64,000 nucleotides of DNA, taken from an uncultured Candidatus Micrarchaeota archaeon (GTDB lineage Archaea; Micrarchaeota; Micrarchaeia; Anstonellales; Bilamarchaeaceae). Both the position numbers and the translations under genes were made by a program. Positions 27,384-60,018 of the stretch are shown one piece after another (position 1 is the first letter of the stretch; every line of letters begins with the position of its first letter). Where the stretch lies: contig OY970229.1 in the NCBI GenBank assembly GCA_963714085.1, positions 1,152,001 through 1,216,000 of the forward strand, written 5' to 3'. Below the pieces are notes generated by a model, which saw nothing but the letters and a program-made list of their open reading frames with translations, was not told the origin of the DNA and searched no databases.

Positions 27384-28680
27384 ATGCGTTAGGCCCGGGA
27401 AATCCAACGTCTTCAGACGTTGGATGAAAGGGCCTGATCTGCTCAGCTCCGTCGAGCACCGCGGAAATCCACCCGGGCAACGCTTATAAACGACCTTTCC
27501 GGCAAATCCTTATGAGAGTGACGCGGGCCTGGAAGTACCGGCTCTATCCTTCAAGAAGCCAGGAAAGGCTGCTGAACGACCAGTTCCACGAATGTAAGAC
27601 GCTCTGGAATTCCCTGCTGGAGCACACGAAGGAATACTACGAGGAAACAGGGAAATTCCCTACCAGGAAGCAGCTTTATCTTATGACAAAAGACACGGAA
27701 CTTTATTCCCAGGTAGCTCAGAACGTCGCAGACAGGCTTGTGAAATCCCTGAAGGGGGTGGTCGCCAGGAAAAAAGCCCGCAGGAAGGCAGGCTTCCCAC
27801 GGTTCAAATCATTTGAACGGGTGAAATCCCTGACCTATCCTCAGTTCGGTTTCAAGCTCAAAAACAAGCTGGAGCTGTCAGGGATTGGAAGCGTGGCAAT
27901 CAGGAAACACAGGGAGATGGATGGTGAGATCAAGACCCTGACCATAAAGAAATCCCCTTCAGGGAAGTGGCATGCGATTTTCACGACTGAATCCGAAAGA
28001 AAGATACCCGAGAGAAACAAGATGCCCAAGGTGGGTATCGACCTTGGGATAGAAACATTCGCGTATCTGAGCGACGGCTCAAGGATAGAGAATCCGCGGA
28101 ATCTCAGACTGGCAGAAGAACAGCTGAAGCTTGTCCAAAGGAGGATGTCTAATAAACGGAAGGGCAGCTCAAACAGGGCCAAAAACAGAAAAACGGTTGC
28201 AATCGCCTATGAAAGACTAACGAACAAGAGAAGGGATTTCCTTCACAAGGCAAGTCGTGCCCTTGTGGAGAATCATTCACTCATAGCCATGGAAGCGCTG
28301 AACAACGAAGGATTGGCGCGTGGTTTCCTGGCGAAAGAGGTATTGGACTGCAGCTGGGCGGAGTTCGCCGGCATGATCAGCTACAAGGCGGAAGGAGCTG
28401 GTTGCGAAGTCGTGCTGGTGAATCCCGCTTACACCTCCCAGAAGTGCAGCAACTGCGGTCTTATACAGAAGAAGTCGCTTGCGGAACGGTGGCATGATTG
28501 TCCTTGTGGGGCATCCATGCACAGGGACCTAAATGCAGCGATAAACATACTCCAACGAGCTACCGGTGGAACGCCGGGAAGTAAAGCCTGCGGAGAAGAG
28601 ACCTCTATCCGTTATAAACATAACGGGCAAGTATCTTCAATGAAACAGGAAGCCCACGCCTTTAGGCGTGGGTAGTTCAC
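27384..28680 (+). mobile_element. IS200/IS605-family tnpB-only element, family A copy 2 (1297 bp)
   Basis: Same ends as copy 1; preceded by TTTAA and ending in TCAC; precise removal restores the host ORF. Confidence 0.95.
27512..28675 (+). CDS. tnpB: RNA-guided endonuclease TnpB
   Basis: Close paralog of 6324-7487 with the RuvC D-E-D triad intact. Confidence 0.95.
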   Translation: MRVTRAWKYRLYPSRSQERLLNDQFHECKTLWNSLLEHTKEYYEETGKFPTRKQLYLMTKDTELYSQVAQNVADRLVKSLKGVVARKKARRKAGFPRFKSFERVKSLTYPQFGFKLKNKLELSGIGSVAIRKHREMDGEIKTLTIKKSPSGKWHAIFTTESERKIPERNKMPKVGIDLGIETFAYLSDGSRIENPRNLRLAEEQLKLVQRRMSNKRKGSSNRAKNRKTVAIAYERLTNKRRDFLHKASRALVENHSLIAMEALNNEGLARGFLAKEVLDCSWAEFAGMISYKAEGAGCEVVLVNPAYTSQKCSNCGLIQKKSLAERWHDCPCGASMHRDLNAAINILQRATGGTPGSKACGEETSIRYKHNGQVSSMKQEAHAFRRG

Positions 28681-51800: not shown

Positions 51801-52622
51801 TCATTGGTTGGCGGCCGGCCTCTTCGCTTTCTCGGCCGCATAGGCGGCCATTATCTCCGCGTAACGCTTGTCGAAGTCCGCGAGCAGCCCGGCGCCTATG
51901 TCCCGTTTCGTATACGCGTCGGCCTTGGCCGCTATGCATATCTTGGCAGCCAGAGCCCTGGCTATCCTGCCGCGCACCGCCTTGGGCGAGCCGGATATCC
52001 TCGGGTGCTGGAATATGATGCCGTGCTTGGGCGGGCTTATCCTCCTGTTCTTCAGGTGCTTGAACAGGGCCTTCTCCGCGCCGAGCACCTGTATGGTGGA
52101 CGATGGCAGCCTGGCCAGCCTGGCAAGGGAGCCGACATGGGACACGAGCTTCGCGGCCACCTCGGGCCCGGCGACCTTGGACATGTTCGGGCAGATCTCC
52201 GTCGCGAGCTCGCACTGGTACTTGAGGTAGCGCTCGCGCATGCCGTGCAGCCCGATTATGGAGTTGGCGAAGAACCTGCACTGCGCAAGGTCGTTGTCCG
52301 AGAGCCCGGCGCCAAGGGTCCGCGCGGCCTGCGCGGATATCTCGTCTGCCTTCTTCTGGCCCACGGAGCTCGCCAGCTCCTTCTTGTCGAGGTTCGCGCG
52401 GTCTATGCTGAGCACGAGCTCAGCGTACTTGAGCTTGTCCTCGACCTTCATCTCCGGGAAGTAGATGCCGTACCATTCCTCCAGCCTCTCGCCCAGGAGG
52501 TTGATGACCTTGTCCAGGTCCTCCATGGTCTTGGTGACCCCGCTGAGCAGCATGTCGCGGGACATGAGGGCGGCCTTCACCCGCTCCCTGGCCCTTTTCA
52601 TAAATATGTCTCGTTTCTCCAT
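51801..52622 (-). CDS. nop5: Box C/D sRNP protein Nop5 (short form)
   Basis: EWYGIYFPE, QVLGAEKALFKHL, PPKHGIIFQHP. Confidence 0.93.
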   Translation of the reverse strand: MEKRDIFMKRARERVKAALMSRDMLLSGVTKTMEDLDKVINLLGERLEEWYGIYFPEMKVEDKLKYAELVLSIDRANLDKKELASSVGQKKADEISAQAARTLGAGLSDNDLAQCRFFANSIIGLHGMRERYLKYQCELATEICPNMSKVAGPEVAAKLVSHVGSLARLARLPSSTIQVLGAEKALFKHLKNRRISPPKHGIIFQHPRISGSPKAVRGRIARALAAKICIAAKADAYTKRDIGAGLLADFDKRYAEIMAAYAAEKAKRPAANQ

Positions 52623-52685
52623 GGGGCATTGATGAGCATAACGTTATAAAAAGTTAGTTATACCCAATCCTTCCAAGGTAATCTC

Positions 52686-53222
52686 ATGAACCAGGTCCAG
52701 AAACTCACGAACGAGACTGTCAAGAACGGCGGAGTGCTCGCGCTGCTCTATTTCGACATACACACGAAGACCAAGGACCTGGCGCAGGAGGTGGGCGCGG
52801 GATTCGTCAACGACCTCCTCAGGTACAACGGCGTGGTCTACGCCGTGGGCGAGATAGACGAGCCCCTCGAGAGCAAGGAGGGCGACTCCATGTTCTCCAC
52901 CTCGGTGCAGGTGAAGGTGCTCACCAAGAAGTTCGGCCATCTCATGCTCATCTGCGCCACCTTCAGCCCGTTCACGGTCGAGATACTCCAGCCTGACGAG
53001 ATACGGCTTCCTCTGAACGAGGCCCACGAGCTGCTCAGCACGATCGGCGCGATCACACTGGACTACAAGAAGTTCATAGTTGAGCGGATCAAGTCGCCGG
53101 CGGAATCCAGGCAGTACACCGAGCTGCTCTCCCGGAGGGCGGCGCTCGGCAGGCAGATCCTTTCGAGGAAGTCGGCAGCCGAGGAGGCGAAGAAACCGGC
53201 CGCGGAAGAGGCGAAGAAATGA
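52686..53222 (+). CDS. Hypothetical archaeal protein
   Basis: 178-aa ORF translationally coupled to the next ATPase. Confidence 0.7.
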   Translation: MNQVQKLTNETVKNGGVLALLYFDIHTKTKDLAQEVGAGFVNDLLRYNGVVYAVGEIDEPLESKEGDSMFSTSVQVKVLTKKFGHLMLICATFSPFTVEILQPDEIRLPLNEAHELLSTIGAITLDYKKFIVERIKSPAESRQYTELLSRRAALGRQILSRKSAAEEAKKPAAEEAKK

Positions 53223-53917
53223 AGCGCGAGTTCATCAAAAGCGGGATACCCGGCCTGGACAAGATAACCGGGGGCGGGCTGCTCGAGGGCTCCGTGGTCA
53301 CGCTGAGCGGGCCTACGGGGAGCGGCAAGAGCACGTTCGCGATGCAGTTCCTGGTGGAGGGGGCGCTCAAGTTCAAGGAGGCCGGCGTCTACATCGCGAT
53401 AGAGGAGAGCAAGGACTCCATGTACTTCCACATGAGCGGCTATGCCTGGGACCTGGACAAGATGGAGAAAGCCCGGCAGCTGGTCTTCCTGGACTACCCG
53501 GTCTACGAGGTGGACCAGTTCATGAACCAGTACTCCGCCATATTGGAGATCATCAACTCAGTGGGCGCGCGTCGCGTGGTCATAGACTCCATAATGCCCA
53601 TAGCCCTGTTCTTCCCCAACGACGAGGAGAGGAAGAAGGGGTTCCTCAAGTTCATAGACAACATCCGCAAGTGGAACACCACGACGCTCATAGTGTCCGA
53701 GGACACGACATCCGCGGCCGGAGAGGCGCTCCCGGAGACCAAGTACGGCATAGAGACCTTCACGGACGCCTGGATACACATATACAACATATTCTCAGAT
53801 AAGACGAAGGAGCGCACCCGCGAGATCGAGGTGCTCAAGATGAAGGGCGCGGCCCACAGCACGAAGAGATACCCGGCGAAGATAGACGCGAACGGGTTCA
53901 CGATACTGGTCAAATAG
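53219..53917 (+). CDS. KaiC/RAD55-family ATPase
   Basis: SGIPGLD, GPTGSGKS, VIDS, LKMKG. Confidence 0.92.
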   Translation: MKREFIKSGIPGLDKITGGGLLEGSVVTLSGPTGSGKSTFAMQFLVEGALKFKEAGVYIAIEESKDSMYFHMSGYAWDLDKMEKARQLVFLDYPVYEVDQFMNQYSAILEIINSVGARRVVIDSIMPIALFFPNDEERKKGFLKFIDNIRKWNTTTLIVSEDTTSAAGEALPETKYGIETFTDAWIHIYNIFSDKTKERTREIEVLKMKGAAHSTKRYPAKIDANGFTILVK

Positions 53918-54431
53918 GCCTGAGAACGCCCCAGACCAGTTTCCGCTCCTTCTCATCCAGCTTGTCGTAATCGGATTCGTACAGGATTATGCGCTTGCCC
54001 AGCTTCAGGAAACGCGCGGCCGACTCTTTCGTGGCCTCCTCGATTATGACATCGTGCACGATCTCCGCATCTCCGTGGTAGCCCGAAGTTGCGACCCCCA
54101 CCAGCAGCCGCTCGCTTTTTTTCCATTCCGAGAGGTCGGCTCCCAAGTCCAGGACCACCCGCGCCTTCACCTTGATGAGCCTCTCGATCATGTCCTTCTT
54201 CACGCTGCACTCGACCTGGATGTTCACGAAATAGGTGAGCTTGTCGTAGATGTCCATGTTGGACGTGGTCCCCCTGATCGCGTCCAGGTCAGCGATGTGG
54301 ATGAGCTTCGCGCCTTTCTCCGAGAGCTTCCTCACGAGCTGCGTGGGGTTCCCCATCATGCGGAGCGAGCCGTGGTCCATCCTGTACGCCTGCTTGTCCT
54401 TCACGTAGAAAAGAGGTATGTCGAGCGTCAT
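53910..54431 (-). CDS. Truncated HisA/HisF-related barrel protein
   Basis: GNP...GAKLIHIADLDA; only 173 aa. Confidence 0.6.
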   Translation of the reverse strand: MTLDIPLFYVKDKQAYRMDHGSLRMMGNPTQLVRKLSEKGAKLIHIADLDAIRGTTSNMDIYDKLTYFVNIQVECSVKKDMIERLIKVKARVVLDLGADLSEWKKSERLLVGVATSGYHGDAEIVHDVIIEEATKESAARFLKLGKRIILYESDYDKLDEKERKLVWGVLRPI

Positions 54432-54472
54432 CGTTTCCCTTTATCCATGCGATCAAAATATTGAACGATCGT

Positions 54473-55714
54473 TCATTTTATTGAACGCACTCTCCCAATC
54501 GCGTCCTCTATCTTCAGGGCCTCCTCCTTCCCGCTCGCCATGTCCCTGAGCGTGACTGTGCCGGCCTCCTTCTCGCGCTCGCCTACGACCGCGACGTAGG
54601 GGATGGACAGAGTGTTCGCGTAGTCAAGTTGTTTTCTTAGGTTGCGCTCGTTGAGGTCGGTCTCGCATTCTATTCCCCCGATGCGGAACTTCGCCGCGAC
54701 CTCTAGAGCATAGGAGTATAACTCGGGTTTTACCACCGCGAGGAAGACACGGGTGTCGGTCTTCTTGACCGCCGTCTTCTTCTCGGTTATGAGTGTCACC
54801 AGCCGTTCGATGCCCACCGATATCCCGGTGGCTGGCGCCGGCTGGCCGTAAACCCCTAATAAGTTGTCGTACCTTCCGCCTCCCATGACGCTGCCCATGC
54901 CCTCGCTGAGACTGACCTCGAACACCGGCCCGGTGTAATATCCGAGGCCGCGCGCAAGCGGAAGGCTTATCTCGATCTCGATTCCGCTGCACAGCTCCAG
55001 TATCTGCTCCAGCTCCTTCGCGCCCTCGGGGCTGTATTTGGCCGCGAGCGATAATTTCTTCTTGTTGTCGCCCTCCGCGTTTATCACGTCGAGGAGCTCC
55101 TTCGCCTTCTTCTTGCCGAGTATCTCCTGGAGCAGCTTGTCCACTTCGGCCTCGCCTATCTTGTCGAGTTTGTCCAGCACGCGGAAAACTTCCCCCTTGC
55201 TCTCGTCAAGCCCGAGCTTGGCGGATATCCCGTCGAGTATCTTGCGGTTGTTGAGCAGGATGCGCGGCTTTCCGAACCCGAACGCGACGCAGAGCGTGTT
55301 CGCGATGGAGAGCAATTCCGCTTCGCATCGCATGGACGGGCTCCCTATTATGTCAGCGTCAGCCTGGTAGAACTCGCGGAACCTTCCTCTCTGCGGCTCC
55401 TCCTTCCTCCAGACCACGTCGACCGCATACCGTTTGAAGGGCTTGGGCGTGTCCGTCCCGGCCGCGTATCTGGCGAGCGGCACCGTGAGGTCGAACCTGA
55501 GCCCGTACTCGTTGCCTTCGATCACGAATATCTGCTTGTCCACCTCGGGGCCGGCTTTTGCCCGGAGCGTCTCAAGGTATTCCATGGCCGGGGTCTCCAG
55601 CGGCCGGTAGCCGTAGAGCTGGAAGGTGCGCCGTATGCCGCCTATGACCTCCTCGCGCACGAACATGTCCTCGGGCCCGATGTCCCGCATTCCTTTCGGA
55701 GTGAGCTTTGCCAT
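54473..55714 (-). CDS. hisS: Histidine--tRNA ligase
   Basis: PKGMRD, LRFDLTVP, GRFREFYQ, ARGLGYYTG, GGGRYD, C-terminal anticodon-binding domain. Confidence 0.96.
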   Translation of the reverse strand: MAKLTPKGMRDIGPEDMFVREEVIGGIRRTFQLYGYRPLETPAMEYLETLRAKAGPEVDKQIFVIEGNEYGLRFDLTVPLARYAAGTDTPKPFKRYAVDVVWRKEEPQRGRFREFYQADADIIGSPSMRCEAELLSIANTLCVAFGFGKPRILLNNRKILDGISAKLGLDESKGEVFRVLDKLDKIGEAEVDKLLQEILGKKKAKELLDVINAEGDNKKKLSLAAKYSPEGAKELEQILELCSGIEIEISLPLARGLGYYTGPVFEVSLSEGMGSVMGGGRYDNLLGVYGQPAPATGISVGIERLVTLITEKKTAVKKTDTRVFLAVVKPELYSYALEVAAKFRIGGIECETDLNERNLRKQLDYANTLSIPYVAVVGEREKEAGTVTLRDMASGKEEALKIEDAIGRVRSIK

Positions 55715-55757
55715 GGTAACCACTTTCTACTTTCGGATTTAAAAAATGGAAAGAAAA

Positions 55758-56168
55758 TCAAGGGATGGCCGGGTAGCGCTGCCCCTTTTTCTTCGTCATG
55801 GTCCGGCGCAGTATCTCGCCCAGCACGTCCTCTATCCGGACGCCCCTGTTCACGAGGTACAACTGGACGAAATACAGCAGGTCCGCCGCCTCCCATATCA
55901 GGTTCCTCTCCCCGCGCGCGGTTATCAGCTCGACCGATTCCTCTATGACCTTCTTGCGTATCTTCCTGGGGTCGGCTAGGAGCTGCGACGTGTACGACCC
56001 CGGGTCGGGATTCCGCTCGCGCTCCCGTATCATGGCGGTCTCGAGCTGCAGGGCGAGCGCTGACGGTCCGGACCGCCGGATCATCGCGTCGATATCCCTT
56101 TTCCCGAAAACCTCTGCCGGGTCGGGCAGGGCCTGCTTTTTCGGCGTTCGTATTTTTCTCATGGCCAT
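55758..56168 (-). CDS. hisE: Phosphoribosyl-ATP pyrophosphatase
   Basis: GSYTSQLL, KKVIEESVE, EAADLLYF. Confidence 0.88.
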   Translation of the reverse strand: MAMRKIRTPKKQALPDPAEVFGKRDIDAMIRRSGPSALALQLETAMIRERERNPDPGSYTSQLLADPRKIRKKVIEESVELITARGERNLIWEAADLLYFVQLYLVNRGVRIEDVLGEILRRTMTKKKGQRYPAIP

Positions 56169-56172
56169 CGCC

Positions 56173-57021
56173 TCAGAGGACTATCAGCCTGGGCTCTGTG
56201 ACAACGATGCCAGAGCCCCCGTTCCCTTTCAGCGCCACCACCAGGTCCTCTATGCCTTTCTCCGGCACCGCCGCGGTCAGGGCGTAACCGCCGCCCACGA
56301 TGGGGCTGACGTCAGGATTTTTCAGGGCCGGAAGGATTTTCACCAGCTCGTCCCTTATCAGGTCCGTAGCCGCGTTTACCCGGACCATCAGGCGTTTTCG
56401 CGCTTCTATCACCGCTCTCAGGCAAAGCTCAATCCGGTCGATCTCCGGCTTCCTGCTTTTCAGGGATGCGGGATTCGCTAAAAGCCTCACCCGCGATTCC
56501 ATCAGCACCTTCAGGATGCGCAGGCCGTTCTCGCGCAACGTGGTGCCGGTGTCCACCTGGTCCACTATGGCTTCGGCTATGCGGAAGAACGGCGCGGTCT
56601 CAAGCGCGCCCTGGAGCCGGATTATCTTCGCGCTGCGGCAGTAACGCTCGGCGAGATTAGGCATCGTGGTGGCGATGCTTTCCGGCTCCCTTATCCTCGG
56701 CGGTGCCGCGAGGGCCACCTTGCAGGCCCCGAAATCCAGTTCCATCACCACCGCGAGGTCCCTTATGCGCCCCCAGGAGGGCGTGGTACAAAGGCCGCAC
56801 TCCGCAACGGCATCGTCGCCGGCAATGCCGATGTCCGCGGCACCGCGCGCCACGAACAACGGTATGTCCATGGCGCGTGCCAGCAGCAGCCGCACCCCTG
56901 CCCGAGACGTCGGGACGATGAGCTTCCGGTCGTCTCCGCCAAGGGCCTTCATGCCCGCGTCCTCAAGGAGCCTGAACAACGGCTCCCTCATCCTGCCCTT
57001 GTTGGGCACCGCTATGGTCAC
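56173..57021 (-). CDS. hisG: ATP phosphoribosyltransferase, long form; predicted to be made from ATG 57076 via a +1 frameshift
   Basis: IAVPNKGR, DIP..V..G..DIGIAG, GALE.AP, IVDQVDTGTTLRENGL, C-terminal regulatory domain. Confidence 0.93.
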   Translation of the reverse strand: MTIAVPNKGRMREPLFRLLEDAGMKALGGDDRKLIVPTSRAGVRLLLARAMDIPLFVARGAADIGIAGDDAVAECGLCTTPSWGRIRDLAVVMELDFGACKVALAAPPRIREPESIATTMPNLAERYCRSAKIIRLQGALETAPFFRIAEAIVDQVDTGTTLRENGLRILKVLMESRVRLLANPASLKSRKPEIDRIELCLRAVIEARKRLMVRVNAATDLIRDELVKILPALKNPDVSPIVGGGYALTAAVPEKGIEDLVVALKGNGGSGIVVTEPRLIVL

Positions 57022-57334
57022 TTCATTCGTGAAGTAAACCCCTTCCTTTTTTCACCTTGTTTTCCATTCCATTCATTTTTCACACCTCCTTGTTTTTTCT
57101 CTACATAGCTCCCGTTTCGGGAGAATGCGCACGATTCAACGTTTTCCGGAGCTCTCGCTATGCTTGCGTTTATCCTGCCGCCTTGCGCGGCGCTCACGTT
57201 CAGGAGTATTTTTTCCCCGGTTCTGATCCCGATGGCGTCCCTTATCTCCAAGGGTAAGACTAGCCGGCCCTTCCTGTCAAGCCGGATGAAGCAAATCCCT
57301 TCCCATGAAGGACATCCCTTCCTTGTTTCTCCAT
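57018..57334 (-). CDS. AbrB/MazE/SpoVT-family DNA-binding protein (104 aa), predicted to need two +1 frameshifts
   Basis: IRLDRKGRLVLPLEIRDAIGIRTGEKI AbrB signature has no in-frame ATG/GTG/TTG upstream; the SD-led ATG at 57334 reaches it by +1 shifts at 57310 and 57291. Confidence 0.8.
57023..57076 (-). CDS. hisG leader peptide MNGMENKVKKGRGLLHE* (unshifted product)
   Basis: Strong SD AGGAGGTG; its single His codon sits in the shift cassette. Confidence 0.75.
   Translation of the reverse strand: MNGMENKVKKGRGLLHE
57029..57046 (-). promoter_or_regulatory. Predicted His-sensing +1 frameshift site 3 (GGA AGG GGT TTA CTT CAC)
   Basis: prfB-like SD-like/3-nt/CTT geometry; the +1 frame is hisG. 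Confidence 0.8.
57286..57303 (-). promoter_or_regulatory. Predicted His-sensing +1 frameshift site 2 (GGA AGG GAT TTG CTT CAT)
   Basis: The +1 frame enters the AbrB domain. Confidence 0.8.
57305..57322 (-). promoter_or_regulatory. Predicted His-sensing +1 frameshift site 1 (GGA AGG GAT GTC CTT CAT)
   Basis: The +1 frame places site 2 in register. Confidence 0.78.
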
Positions 57335-57478
57335 CGTTTTCACCTTGTTCGCATGGTCATTGTGATTTTTCCCACTATTTATTTGTTTGTAACAAAATCC
57401 ATCCTCGTCTATTGCTCCCCTCTCCCCGGGTTTTCTGTTGCAGTACGTCTTTTAAACTGATTCAACGAAATTAGCGTA

Positions 57479-58483
57479 ATGGCGATCATGCGGAACAAGC
57501 AGCCGCGCCTGTGGTGGGTGAACGCACAGACCCCAGGTAACGGCCAGCCCCTCTCAAGAAGCAACTCCGCGATACTGCCGGCTGACAGGCAGAACAAAGC
57601 CAGGATATTCTGCAGCCGTAAAGAACTCTCGTTCTCCGCGCAAATGCTCAAGGGAAGGGAGAGGAGCATATGCCAGGATACCATCGCGATGCTCGTGCGC
57701 GACGACATCATCATGGCAGCGGTGCTCGACGGCCACGAAAGCTGGGGTCATTTGTACTCCCTTGAGATGGCGCGCTGCCTGGTCCGTTTAGCCAGGCACC
57801 TGCGGACGCCGACCGGGCCCGATGCCAAGCAGCTCATCATCGAAGCTGCGAAGGCCATGCCGTTTCTCCCCAGCGAAGACTATCTCGAGGCCTTGCTCGG
57901 AGCCCCGAAGAAAGGAGGCACCACGGTGACAGTGGCGCTGTTGGGCAGGGACCGCAGGTACAGCATAGCCACGCTTGGCGACTCGCCGCCGTACCTGGTC
58001 GGGCACGGCTCCGCGAAGCGGCTGTCTGACAGCTCCTGCATCTTGGACATCGATAGAAAAGACGAGGGCGGCCGCCTGTTCATAGGCAAAGACATCGTCC
58101 AATGGGATGATTATCTCGAAGTGCGGAATTACATATTCGGAGCGGTCAACGGATTCGTCACCACCAAGTCGGAGATACAAGTCAAGGAAGGCGAGCTGGA
58201 ACGCGGCATGAAGCTGGTGCTGGTGAGCGACGGGATAACGAAGAACCTCTCATGCGTCACGGACCTTTCCATGAACGTGCTTGATGTGAGCGGCAATCTT
58301 GACATGGCCCGGATCATGCGCGATGGCATGACGCTGACCGAAGCCACCTCGCGCTTGTTATCGGTCGCCCGCAGCCGCGCGGATGGCAAGAGCGGACCCA
58401 CTTTCCGGTCCAACGGTGAGCGCCTCGAGGTCGTTTCACCGGCTGACGATGACATGACCGTGATAGCGCTCGCAGCGGACTGA
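57479..58483 (+). CDS. PP2C/PPM-family phosphatase
   Basis: CQD, VLDGH, GGTT, LGDS, VSDG, DDMT. Confidence 0.85.
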   Translation: MAIMRNKQPRLWWVNAQTPGNGQPLSRSNSAILPADRQNKARIFCSRKELSFSAQMLKGRERSICQDTIAMLVRDDIIMAAVLDGHESWGHLYSLEMARCLVRLARHLRTPTGPDAKQLIIEAAKAMPFLPSEDYLEALLGAPKKGGTTVTVALLGRDRRYSIATLGDSPPYLVGHGSAKRLSDSSCILDIDRKDEGGRLFIGKDIVQWDDYLEVRNYIFGAVNGFVTTKSEIQVKEGELERGMKLVLVSDGITKNLSCVTDLSMNVLDVSGNLDMARIMRDGMTLTEATSRLLSVARSRADGKSGPTFRSNGERLEVVSPADDDMTVIALAAD

Positions 58484-58530
58484 CGCTCCATGCGAATATT
58501 TTTATGCATGTCGCTGCGTAAAACGGTTCT

Positions 58531-59025
58531 ATGGAACTCTACGATAATAAATTCCTGCCGATGGACTCGTTCGTCCGCATCTTCGCGCTCGCTTCCATAG
58601 CGGTGCTCACGTTCTCGCTCAGCTTCATGGTGCTCCCGTTCATGAGCTGGGAGTTCCACTTCTTCCAGCTGGGGATATTCCTGTCCGCGTTCCTTTTCGG
58701 TCCGTTCGCGGGCGCCGTGGTAGGCGCGTTTTCGTCATCCTATAACGGCCTCTTCATAATCCACAACCCATGGATAATCGGGGGCAACGCGCTGCTCGGC
58801 TTCTCCGCCGCATACTTATATACTAAGACCACGCCGTTCAAGGCTGCGATGGCAGCATACGCGATACAGCTGCCCTACCTGGTTGCGACCGACGTGCTCT
58901 TTGCCGGCATGGCACCTATGATCGTGCTCGGGCTCGCGGCCACGCTCCTGGCCGAGAACGTGCTCTGCGCCTTCATGGCAGTCTCCATGGCGCCGCATGT
59001 GAAGGCGCTCCTCTCACGCTCATGA
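58531..59025 (+). CDS. ECF transporter S-component-like membrane protein
   Basis: FLFGPFAGAVVG motif and five to six transmembrane helices. Confidence 0.75.
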   Translation: MELYDNKFLPMDSFVRIFALASIAVLTFSLSFMVLPFMSWEFHFFQLGIFLSAFLFGPFAGAVVGAFSSSYNGLFIIHNPWIIGGNALLGFSAAYLYTKTTPFKAAMAAYAIQLPYLVATDVLFAGMAPMIVLGLAATLLAENVLCAFMAVSMAPHVKALLSRS

Positions 59026-59450
59026 AACCCATCCCGGTCTCCTACGGAGAGATAATGGATTCCACCCCCTGGGTCAGCCTCAGGGCTTTCTCGCCCGACA
59101 TGGTGATAGGGGTGGAGCGCGGGGGAATGGTACTCGCCGCGATAACCGCGTTCCGGTTGGACGCCGCGCTCGCCACGGTGCGCGCTTCATTATACGATGA
59201 TTCGAAACCTGCCAAGGAGAAGCACCCGGAGCCCGAGATCATGCCCGCCCCGCTTCCGTCTCTTGCGGGCAGGCGCGTCCTCATCGTGGATGACGTGTGT
59301 AATACAGGCAGGACACTTGCCGCGGTCAGTAGGCTCGTGCAATCCGCAGGCCCGAAGGAAGTGAAGACGTTCGTCTATGCGGGCAACGCGGATTTCTCCT
59401 GCAAGCCGTTCGAGAAATGCCTGAGATTCCCTTGGGAGGAAGTGCGGTAA
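59022..59450 (+). CDS. Type I phosphoribosyltransferase
   Basis: VERGG, VLIVDDVCNTGRT, FPWE. Confidence 0.88.
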   Translation: MKPIPVSYGEIMDSTPWVSLRAFSPDMVIGVERGGMVLAAITAFRLDAALATVRASLYDDSKPAKEKHPEPEIMPAPLPSLAGRRVLIVDDVCNTGRTLAAVSRLVQSAGPKEVKTFVYAGNADFSCKPFEKCLRFPWEEVR

Positions 59451-59488
59451 GTTTTTATTCTCTTCTCCGCGAAACGAATACCCTATAC

Positions 59489-59581
59489 AGCCCCGTCGTC
59501 TAGTGGTCAAGGATAGGAGGCTCTGGCTTTTCCTAAAAAAGGAGAAACCTCTTGACATCGGTTCGAATCCGGTCGGGGCTA
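59489..59581 (+). tRNA. tRNA-Gln(CTG) with canonical 37/38 intron (59527-59546)
   Basis: A1-T72 acceptor pair; GGAGG-CTCTGG[intron]A-CCTCT; BHB central helix CTCT/GGAG. Confidence 0.92.
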
Positions 59582-59604
59582 AAAACTTCCCATCGCCGTC
59601 GGAA

Positions 59605-60018
59605 TCAGGCCGGCTTGAACATCTCGGCGTCCACGCTCTCTATCCCGACGACCTCGCTGTACTCCCTCGGGTCGAACGACGCCCCTTCCCACACCACCAG
59701 TATGGTGTTCCTCGAAACGCGCACGGCGATCAGGACCTCGCTGCGCTCCGCTATCTTCTTTCCGAGGTTGGACACGAGCCTGGGGCCGAGCTCCGAAAGG
59801 AGATAGTCCTTCACCCTGAGGTTCGCGGCTTTCATGAGGCCTCTTTTCGAATTGCCCAGCACCACGTTGAATCCCCGTATCACGCCGTCCTGCTTCATCC
59901 TGTTGAACCTCAGGTATACCGTAGGCCTGGGAACTCCGATCATGTCGGCTATTTTGGACAGCGGCGTGCTCGCGTCTTTCTGGAGGATATCTATGATCCG
60001 TTTGTCAAGATCGTCCAT
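59605..60018 (-). CDS. Lrp/AsnC-family regulator
   Basis: MDDLDKRIIDILQKDA HTH. Confidence 0.88.
   Translation of the reverse strand: MDDLDKRIIDILQKDASTPLSKIADMIGVPRPTVYLRFNRMKQDGVIRGFNVVLGNSKRGLMKAANLRVKDYLLSELGPRLVSNLGKKIAERSEVLIAVRVSRNTILVVWEGASFDPREYSEVVGIESVDAEMFKPA

Follow-up and report, generated by a model that had tools for sequence, protein, structure and literature searches.

A putative amino-acid-sensing +1 frameshift leader ahead of hisG in an uncultured Micrarchaeota archaeon, and related leaders across its order

The stretch of DNA analysed here, which we call the window, comprises 64,000 nucleotides of contig OY970229.1 (assembly GCA_963714085.1, positions 1,152,001 to 1,216,000) from an uncultured Candidatus Micrarchaeota archaeon. 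Ahead of its hisG gene lies a short leader open reading frame (ORF) that has a strong ribosome-binding site of its own, ends in a frame different from that of hisG and contains a single histidine codon. Our sequence comparisons suggest that this leader is quite probably a translational sensor of amino-acid supply, acting through programmed +1 ribosomal frameshifting at a hungry codon. All features of the hisG locus described below are on the minus strand, and positions are those of the window.

The leader is preceded by the Shine-Dalgarno (SD) sequence AGGAGGTG (57090-57083), which is complementary to the 3' end of the 16S rRNA and serves an ATG lying 6 nt downstream of it (57076-57074); its GGAGGTG counts as a perfect 7-nt match because the 16S 3' end reads GATCACCTCCA. 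From this ATG run 17 codons (MNGMENKVKKGRGLLHE) and a stop (57023..57076), the TGA at 57025-57023 falling 1 nt before a GTG in the hisG frame (57019..57021). The sole His codon, CAC at 57031-57029, is followed by GAA and then by this stop. It closes an 18-nt motif, GGAAGGGGTTTACTTCAC (57029..57046), the third copy of its kind at the locus, made of a purine-rich tract, NUN, a CUU at 57034-57032 (the proposed P-site slip codon) and the CAC (the proposed A-site His sensor). When C 57031 is omitted, the reading becomes ACG AAT GAA GTG ACC ATA GCG (TNEVTIA...), that is, the hisG frame TNEVTIAVPNKGR..., which runs for 285 amino acids and a stop (56173..57030), so that 15 leader residues plus 285 give a product of 300 amino acids. 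The hisG frame is open for nine codons upstream of the GTG (KKEGVYFTNE), with no ATG, GTG or TTG among them, and the ORF begun at the GTG is 282 amino acids long, with Pfam matches to HisG (1.7e-36) and HisG_C (2.9e-09). The only purine-rich tract ahead of that GTG, GGAAGGGG, ends 17 nt upstream and is therefore not a properly spaced SD. An earlier, sequence-only reading of this DNA had stated that the strong SD belongs to an out-of-frame leader, that skipping the C of CAC leads into hisG with a 300-residue product, and that the GTG has no properly spaced SD; all three statements were borne out. A hairpin is also predicted here, GGUU-U-ACUUCA CGAA UGAAGU-GACC (57016..57040, 10 bp), in which the slip site (ACUUCA) pairs with the region of the leader stop and GTG (UGAAGU); the 141-nt fold around it has an energy of -35.6 kcal/mol and a z score of -2.94. 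At the same place in two related loci, L048 and L060, an alternative hairpin, UUCACUGC / GCAGUGAA, can be drawn by eye.

In the mechanism that we propose, ribosomes would load at the strong SD and the ATG at 57076, read the leader in frame 0 and arrive with CUU in the P site and CAC in the A site. When His-tRNA(His) is plentiful, CAC would be decoded, GAA read and translation ended at the TGA, yielding the 17-residue peptide only. When it is scarce, the A site would stay empty, the peptidyl-tRNA-Leu (anticodon GAG) would re-pair from CUU to UUC, ACG would become the next codon, and the shifted ribosome would continue into hisG to make the 300-residue leader-HisG fusion. The conserved purine tract AAGGRRU, ending 3-4 nt before CUU, would stimulate the shift, perhaps by pairing with CCUCC of the 16S rRNA. 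The predicted junction peptide of the trans-frame product is GLLTNEVTIAVPNK; a start at the GTG would give (M/V)TIAVPNK.... The shift would probably also drive hisE and hisS, which follow closely and whose expression we infer to be coupled to it. A tRNA-Leu gene with anticodon GAG is present in the genome (ARAGORN). We place the frame change at the junction of CUU and the sensor because the sensor is read in frame 0, which alone has initiation signals, because the gene frame is open from the sensor onward, and because the frame-0 stop follows the sensor at once, as in L064 and L166, or after one further codon, as in the window. The slip itself, its dependence on charged tRNA and the role of the upstream tract are what the sequences suggest, and the sign of the control would be right, in that scarcity of the charged tRNA would empty the A site, favor the shift and so yield the enzyme.

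The layout is far beyond what chance would be expected to give, since the strict 18-nt site GGAAGGGRTNTNCTTCAY occurs three times in the 1,571,539-base genome, always at this locus, and the arrangement is repeated in many related genomes. Three loci, L017, L018 and L019, with HisG identities of 81, 62 and 62%, came from a metagenome scan with HisG, and all of them keep GGAAGGGGTTTACTTCAC-NNN-TGA-A-GTGACCATAGCGGTGCCC exactly, including the GTGACC at the start of hisG. The motif copy at hisG is 100% identical in four of four close relatives, whose HisG proteins are only 62-81% identical, and the leader bodies vary in length in steps of one codon (17, 15 and 14 codons). In L018 and L019, the two loci with enough upstream DNA, the SD and the ATG are preserved and the leader is 15 or 14 codons long. 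An alignment of hisG 5' regions from related genomes, which the sequence-only reading had proposed as a check, covers nine leaders (alignment A1) and found the motif, the frames and the 3n+1 linkers conserved: GGAGGTGT is present in all eight leaders that reach the SD, the ATG lies 30, 24, 21, 18 or 9 nt from the motif, and the His codon lies 13, 22 or 19 nt from the conserved ATAGC of hisG, a distance that is always 3n+1. This constant register points to a reading-frame relation; a periodic binding site would not need it.

A similar picture was obtained across the whole order. With at most one mismatch the motif is found in 82 of 176 genomes (a reversed control gave scattered single matches), and the exact motif in 29 of the 401 genomes sampled from the phylum, with one among the 265 that lie outside the order and no match for the control. 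Allowing two mismatches, the fetched loci hold 131 matches, 100 of them within ORFs of at most 60 codons that have a start. In 38 of these 100 leaders the +1 frame, reached when the first base of the His codon is passed over, continues for 190-467 amino acids; the +2 frame never reaches 190 (maximum 140). By Pfam and NCBIfam the 38 targets are HisG (seven, and one weak), HisD (11), HisI (one), a radical SAM protein (one) and 17 proteins of no family. An SD-like hexamer with a start codon is found in the His-codon frame in 36 of the 38, in the gene frame in three and in the +2 frame in one. The gene frame is closed 6-13 codons upstream of the site, and in 24 of the 38 it holds no start there; many targets lack any ATG, GTG or TTG between the site and the conserved core of the protein, among them hisD (L071, L073, L074), hisG (L048, L060), hisG-like genes (L067:894, L078:605), members of a family described below as famA (L057, L063) and L061. 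In some cases the leader continues for another 11-33 codons after the sensor, from which point the gene frame is already open. The CUU is nearly invariant in the 38 (C in 37, UU in all), in agreement with the matches found independently in the hisD census described below; the position-weight matrix of the motif is biased by the search pattern and serves for description only. Synonymous positions (GGA, AGG, CUU) are strongly conserved while the encoded residues vary (G/E/A/V/K at codon 1, G/D at codon 3), which argues for a constraint on the RNA and not on the peptide. One further match in the window with one mismatch (28229; RRDFLH) was set aside as a chance occurrence, lying inside a 387-residue ORF (27512-28675, plus strand) that we take to be a TnpB/OrfB transposase of the IS200/IS605 type.

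Among the 17 targets without a family, nine form a family that we call famA (L038, L041, L045, L052, L057, L058, L063, L064 and L078:1008-2021), of 340-360 residues with the motif FYYGISxSRxxEPLDQLDV, found behind His-sensor leaders in genomes without hisD. It gave no sequence match in Pfam, NCBIfam or the PDB, and an atlas search pointed only weakly, and below the range of reliable recognition, to cyclodipeptide-synthase-like and NurA-like clusters. The radical SAM protein is L087:620-1726 (NCBIfam variant_rSAM, 2.9e-49). Other family-less proteins behind His leaders are found at L047, L061, L083, L065 and L081:937.

Since the census above started from the motif, hisD offers a view free of that ascertainment. 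Every hisD of the order was taken (45 of 176 genomes), 43 of the 5' regions were fetched, and these were searched for nothing but xTTCAY in the register that would feed hisD. In 19 of the 43 (families f1, f6 and f8) the full motif stands directly ahead of hisD in the +1 register. In two of these 19 (L132, L142) the open hisD frame is devoid of start codons, and in four others (L120, L125, L128, L139) the sole start lies 3-4 codons before the Pfam core. Two more of the 43 hisD genes lie behind a leader-hisG arrangement, and two are doubtful. In relatives at the family level in which hisG comes after hisB and has its own ATG, the leader heads the operon, about 3.6 kb upstream, before hisD. In one locus of family f8 (L119, genome G031), ATGGGTGGATTGCTTCAC stands directly 5' of hisD in the +1 register, and may represent a minimal leader, MGGLLH, without the purine tract.

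The most telling comparison comes from leaders in which the codon after CUU is not a His codon. In the 99 genomes of family f1, the first 15 nt of the motif, GGAAGGGRTNTNCTT, were searched alone and gave 92 matches, against about 15 for the reversed control. In 56 of the 92 a CAY follows. The other 36 were all fetched; 24 are not in leaders, and 12 are in leaders with an SD and an ATG. Two of these 12 have TGG (Trp) as the sensor codon, and their +1 frame encodes component I of anthranilate synthase (TrpE; Chorismate_bind 4e-94 and 3e-95, with Anth_synt_I_N). Two have CCA (Pro), one leading into an amino-acid kinase (3.6e-15, ProB-like) and the other into a pyrroline-5-carboxylate reductase (proC; F420_oxidored and P5CR_dimer). 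Six have TTC (Phe; L144, L148, L150, L156, L162, L163) and two TGC (Cys; L161, L167), and behind these the +1 frame encodes helix-turn-helix (HTH) proteins of 59-78 residues that share GRP..L.GERLEELLELYY; we regard them as candidate amino-acid-specific transcription regulators made by frameshifting. Thus each recognised biosynthetic enzyme behind such a leader matches the pathway of the codon that follows CUU (20 His, two Trp, two Pro). All sensor codons begin with C or U, which fits the slip because G34 of tRNA-Leu(GAG) needs UUY after the move from CUU to UUY. Two further loci (L020 and L021, ...GRGLL-P with CCT) were tried as Pro sensors and rejected, as their +1 ORFs of 111-123 residues belong to no family and look non-coding. 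Taken together, the conservation of leader, frame, CUU-CAY and +1 relation ahead of hisG, hisD and hisI, the targets without starts and the matched swaps of sensor and pathway support the proposal of the sequence-only reading that the sole His codon of the leader would be a +1 shift site feeding hisG when histidine is scarce.

The core of that reading stood; it had overlooked the 12 conserved nucleotides ahead of CUU, the two further copies of the motif upstream and the frame to which they lead. Upstream of the hisG leader an SD-like AGGTGA (57340..57345), complementary to the 16S 3' end, serves the ATG of a small ORF, uORF-A (MEKQGRDVLHGKGFASSGLTGRAG and a stop, beginning MEKQGRDVLHGKGF; 57260..57334); the AGGTGA-N-ATG layout is common to L018, L019 and many genomes, and homologues of uORF-A are present at 28 loci. 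Frame 0 of uORF-A holds motif copy 1, GGAAGGGATGTCCTTCAT (57305..57322, sensor CAT at 57307-57305). Copy 2, GGAAGGGATTTGCTTCAT (57286..57303, sensor CAT at 57288-57286), lies 19 nt past it in its +1 frame, where it is carried by MGRDLLHPA and a stop (57306-57277). The +1 frame of copy 2 is in turn an 89-residue frame, IRLDRKGRLVLPLEIRDAIGIRTGEK... (57018..57287), whose TGA (57020-57018) overlaps the hisG GTG as GTGA. This frame has no start codon 5' of its domain, the first being a TTG at 57251 in mid-domain. Its Pfam match to MazE_antitoxin (PF04014) is weak (E 0.0037; 17.6 bits against a cut-off of 24.7), and four homologues give sub-threshold matches of E 4e-4 to 7e-3; as the score is below the cut-off, we call it AbrB-like and not a member of the SpoVT/AbrB-MazE group.

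In about 20 genomes an AbrB-like ORF is reachable only by two successive +1 shifts at His codons. The small ORF, with its two His sites one +1 shift apart, is also retained in L018 and L019, and in six loci (L018, L019, L044, L045, L048, L063) the AbrB-like ORF is degenerate, yet the His sites are kept. A search at the nucleotide level found spacings between copies 1 and 2 of 19 (mostly), 22, 25 and 28 nt, all of them 3n+1; a spacing of 88 nt and one of the 28-nt cases came from a search with the in-frame +1 peptide, which is circular for this purpose, and are not counted as evidence. Two stacked shift sites would let the AbrB-like protein arise only after two shifts, from which we infer a steeper response for this protein. 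A locus of the same genus as the window (L067, genome G001) carries the upstream module and then a leader that feeds a divergent, short HisG-like gene (TIGR00070, 1.4e-12), which lacks a start and carries a 33-residue extension; next comes a fourth leader, leading into hisI. The gene content behind the putative switch therefore varies even within one genus.

These observations make it reasonably likely that the hisG leader is one instance of an order-wide, modular and in effect programmable switch, in which AAGGRRU-NUN-CUU and a single sensor codon after it (His, Trp, Pro, Phe or Cys) would drive enzymes (hisG, hisD, hisI, trpE, proB, proC) or HTH regulators, with a double-shift gate at His codons for the AbrB-like protein.

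Several observations weigh against frameshifting as the working principle. The pairing of the purine tract with the 16S rRNA is imperfect in every register that we tried by eye. In 14 of the 38 census targets the +1 frame contains some start codon before the site, with an SD in three of them. Among the 43 hisD genes, eight have the upstream small-ORF/AbrB-like module and an ATG of their own, and 12 have no such element. CUU-CAY pairs are not depleted in long ORFs, being found at about twice the expected number in a crude ORF set that includes shadow frames. ARAGORN, run with or without introns (43 tRNAs with the intron option), reports no tRNA-His gene in the genome, which probably reflects a limit of detection; many tRNAs of this genome carry introns, and one at 59489-59581 is called Gln(CTG). 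The histidine pathway itself looks incomplete in this genome, a single 1.57-Mb contig with 87.65% marker completeness, where HisD, PRA-CH (HisI) and IGPD (HisB) were not found and His_biosynth gave weak matches only. More histidine is therefore no obvious outcome here, and while Pfam upholds the identity of hisG, the role that the sequence-only reading had given to its product, the first committed enzyme of histidine synthesis, is doubtful. What the leader controls may be hisS as much as hisG, and raised hisS expression may perhaps be the more useful output. Finally, TGA-A-GTG is a classic layout for termination and reinitiation, and the GTG is kept in six of the nine hisG leaders (the window, L017, L018, L019, L037 and L062).

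This last point leads to the strongest of the competing explanations, in which ribosomes stop at the TGA at 57025-57023 and restart at the GTG at 57021 to make a HisG of 282 residues, the His codon having no role or merely slowing delivery. The spacing of 1 nt, the conservation of a GTG without its own SD and the predicted hairpin, which buries the GTG and would make its use dependent on upstream translation, all suit this scheme, and some or all HisG could start there; such reinitiation may provide basal HisG. As a full account we consider it unlikely. It leaves unexplained the invariant 18-mer, the strict +1 relation over linkers of 13, 19 and 22 nt, the targets devoid of any start codon, the leaders that run well beyond the sensor and the agreement between sensor codon and pathway (His, Trp, Pro). 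The start that it needs near the leader stop is lacking in L048 and L060, where CTG takes the place of the GTG (TAKGSELTIAVP), and in many hisD, famA and hisG-like targets; L059 has a TTG. Moreover, stalling at CAC would place the ribosome over the GTG, so that the control would have the wrong sign. Improbable as well is constitutive recoding, a +1 shift or quadruplet reading of CUUC/CUUU at a fixed rate that keeps expression low. The frame relations and missing starts fit any +1 event, yet a fixed rate would free the last two bases after CUU, and these are instead set to His before hisG, hisD and hisI (20 cases), Trp before trpE (two of two) and Pro before proB and proC (two of two).

The 18-mer could also be imagined as an operator bound by protein or RNA, for instance by the AbrB-like protein, or as the code for a shared N-terminal peptide, EGVYFT, the leaders being incidental. 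In its favor stand the three copies at one locus beside a protein of DNA-binding type and the conservation of synonymous positions, the latter pointing to a constraint at the level of nucleic acid. We nevertheless hold this to be very improbable, since SDs and starts favor the His-codon frame over the gene frame, and the gene frame is closed shortly upstream and mostly start-less there; the copies are variably spaced (19-88 nt, the largest value from the circular search) yet always at 3n+1, for which an operator has no need, and an operator would not alter its last three bases to suit a pathway. The least credible alternative, to which we give next to no weight, is that a fixed frameshift mutation or an assembly error split an in-frame N-terminal extension off hisG. 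A relative of the same family (L003) does have an in-frame MNGSIQNGQLL-IRLAIPNKGR, likewise starting with MNG, and the A6 and G4 runs of the leader are places prone to indels. Against this, dozens of genomes and several gene families share the same out-of-frame arrangement. An assembly indel is not the source of the frame offset, because an independent 654-nt contig from run X1, which may be the sample of origin, spans 56893-57546 with 0 gaps and one differing letter. Runs X2 and X3 did not cover the site, and run X6 contains a relative with one 54-nt piece (56999-57052, one mismatch) whose flanks did not align.

The +1 shift that we propose is closest in logic to that of bacterial prfB, where CUU occupies the P site before a slow A-site codon, a purine tract resembling an SD stands a few bases upstream, and the main product is encoded in the +1 frame after a short frame-0 ORF, under negative feedback. 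The P-site codon, the nearby upstream tract, the +1 main product and the feedback logic are alike. The sensor differs, being here a sense codon and its aminoacyl-tRNA, whereas in prfB it is a stop codon and RF2. Also, the element described here is archaeal, forms a separate leader with its own SD, is reused with other sensor codons and has a tract of the form AAGGRRU-NUN. Amino-acid attenuators (hisL, trpL, pheL) likewise use codons of their own pathway in a short leader to sense charged tRNA and control downstream biosynthetic genes, but they rely on runs of cognate codons and work at the level of transcription, through alternative terminator and antiterminator hairpins. The leaders described here have a single sensor codon and lack a terminator, and their output would be a shifted reading frame in which leader and enzyme are fused. 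Each of our leaders holds a single His codon and overlaps the gene frame, leaving no room for a terminator, and one short hairpin is predicted. T-boxes and other RNA switches of his genes serve the same regulatory task; here no structured aptamer is evident, and an Rfam scan of 52000-60000 with E values up to 1 returned tRNA only, with no T-box or riboswitch match.

Frameshifting in relation to amino acids or metabolites has precedents of other kinds. At the Ty1 site CUU_AGG_C, about 40% of ribosomes shift to +1 at a rate set by a scarce tRNA, according to a recoding review (PMC5009743) that also covers the promotion of shifts by hungry codons and the work of Gallant on them. As we propose for our leaders, Ty1 combines a P-site CUU with a hungry sense codon in the A site, and its shift efficiency is tied to the supply of the cognate tRNA (PMC5009743); it differs in that a constitutively rare tRNA sets the Gag:Pol ratio, with no amino-acid sensing, coupling to a pathway or conserved upstream element. 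Antizyme resembles them as a metabolite-responsive +1 shift with feedback on a biosynthetic pathway (PMC5009743), but it is eukaryotic, uses a stop codon as its shift site, is favored by the end product and yields an inhibitor. For pheL, frameshifting is reported to be incidental and not regulatory (PMC3082878). Full-text literature searches returned no description of an amino-acid-sensing frameshift leader. To our knowledge, hungry-codon frameshifting has so far been treated as an error of translation or a trick of retrotransposons and not as a cellular sensor, and little is known of the ways in which archaea match amino-acid biosynthesis to supply. The 2016 recoding review, in the passages available to us, calls the natural role of hungry-codon frameshifting unclear (PMC5009743). 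The leaders described here appear to follow the logic of prfB with an aminoacyl-tRNA in the place of RF2, and to be undescribed both as a control of amino-acid biosynthesis and as a reusable archaeal module.

If this interpretation is right, such leaders would join attenuation and T-boxes as a third general mode of sensing charged tRNA in gene control, and would be the first such mode reported from Archaea. A single codon behind a 15-nt cassette would suffice to tie the expression of a gene to the charging of one tRNA, which would offer a simple rule for predicting regulons in archaea with small genomes and a compact, re-targetable part for synthetic biology. It would also explain why gene callers truncate or miss the starts of such genes, and would flag famA and the radical SAM enzyme as probably histidine-related.

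The genes around the leader complete the picture of the locus. hisE (PRA-PH, 2.5e-15 in Pfam; 55758..56168, minus strand) begins 4 nt past the hisG stop, and the next gene on the same strand is the histidyl-tRNA synthetase gene hisS (54473..55723; tRNA-synt_His 2.2e-42, HGTP_anticodon 1.1e-18). The archaeal nature of the genome is reflected in the scores of the small-subunit rRNA models (1353 bits for the archaeal one versus 1045 for the bacterial one). Past hisS, a 173-residue ORF (53910-54431, minus strand) shows a weak match of 24.9 bits to His_biosynth over the first half of the barrel. On the plus strand, a KaiC-type ATPase ORF (53219-53917, 3.3e-48) overlaps small minus-strand ORFs without a family, and a gene for a PP2C/SpoIIE-like phosphatase (57479-58483; PP2C_2, 3.3e-06) is divergent from the his leader region.

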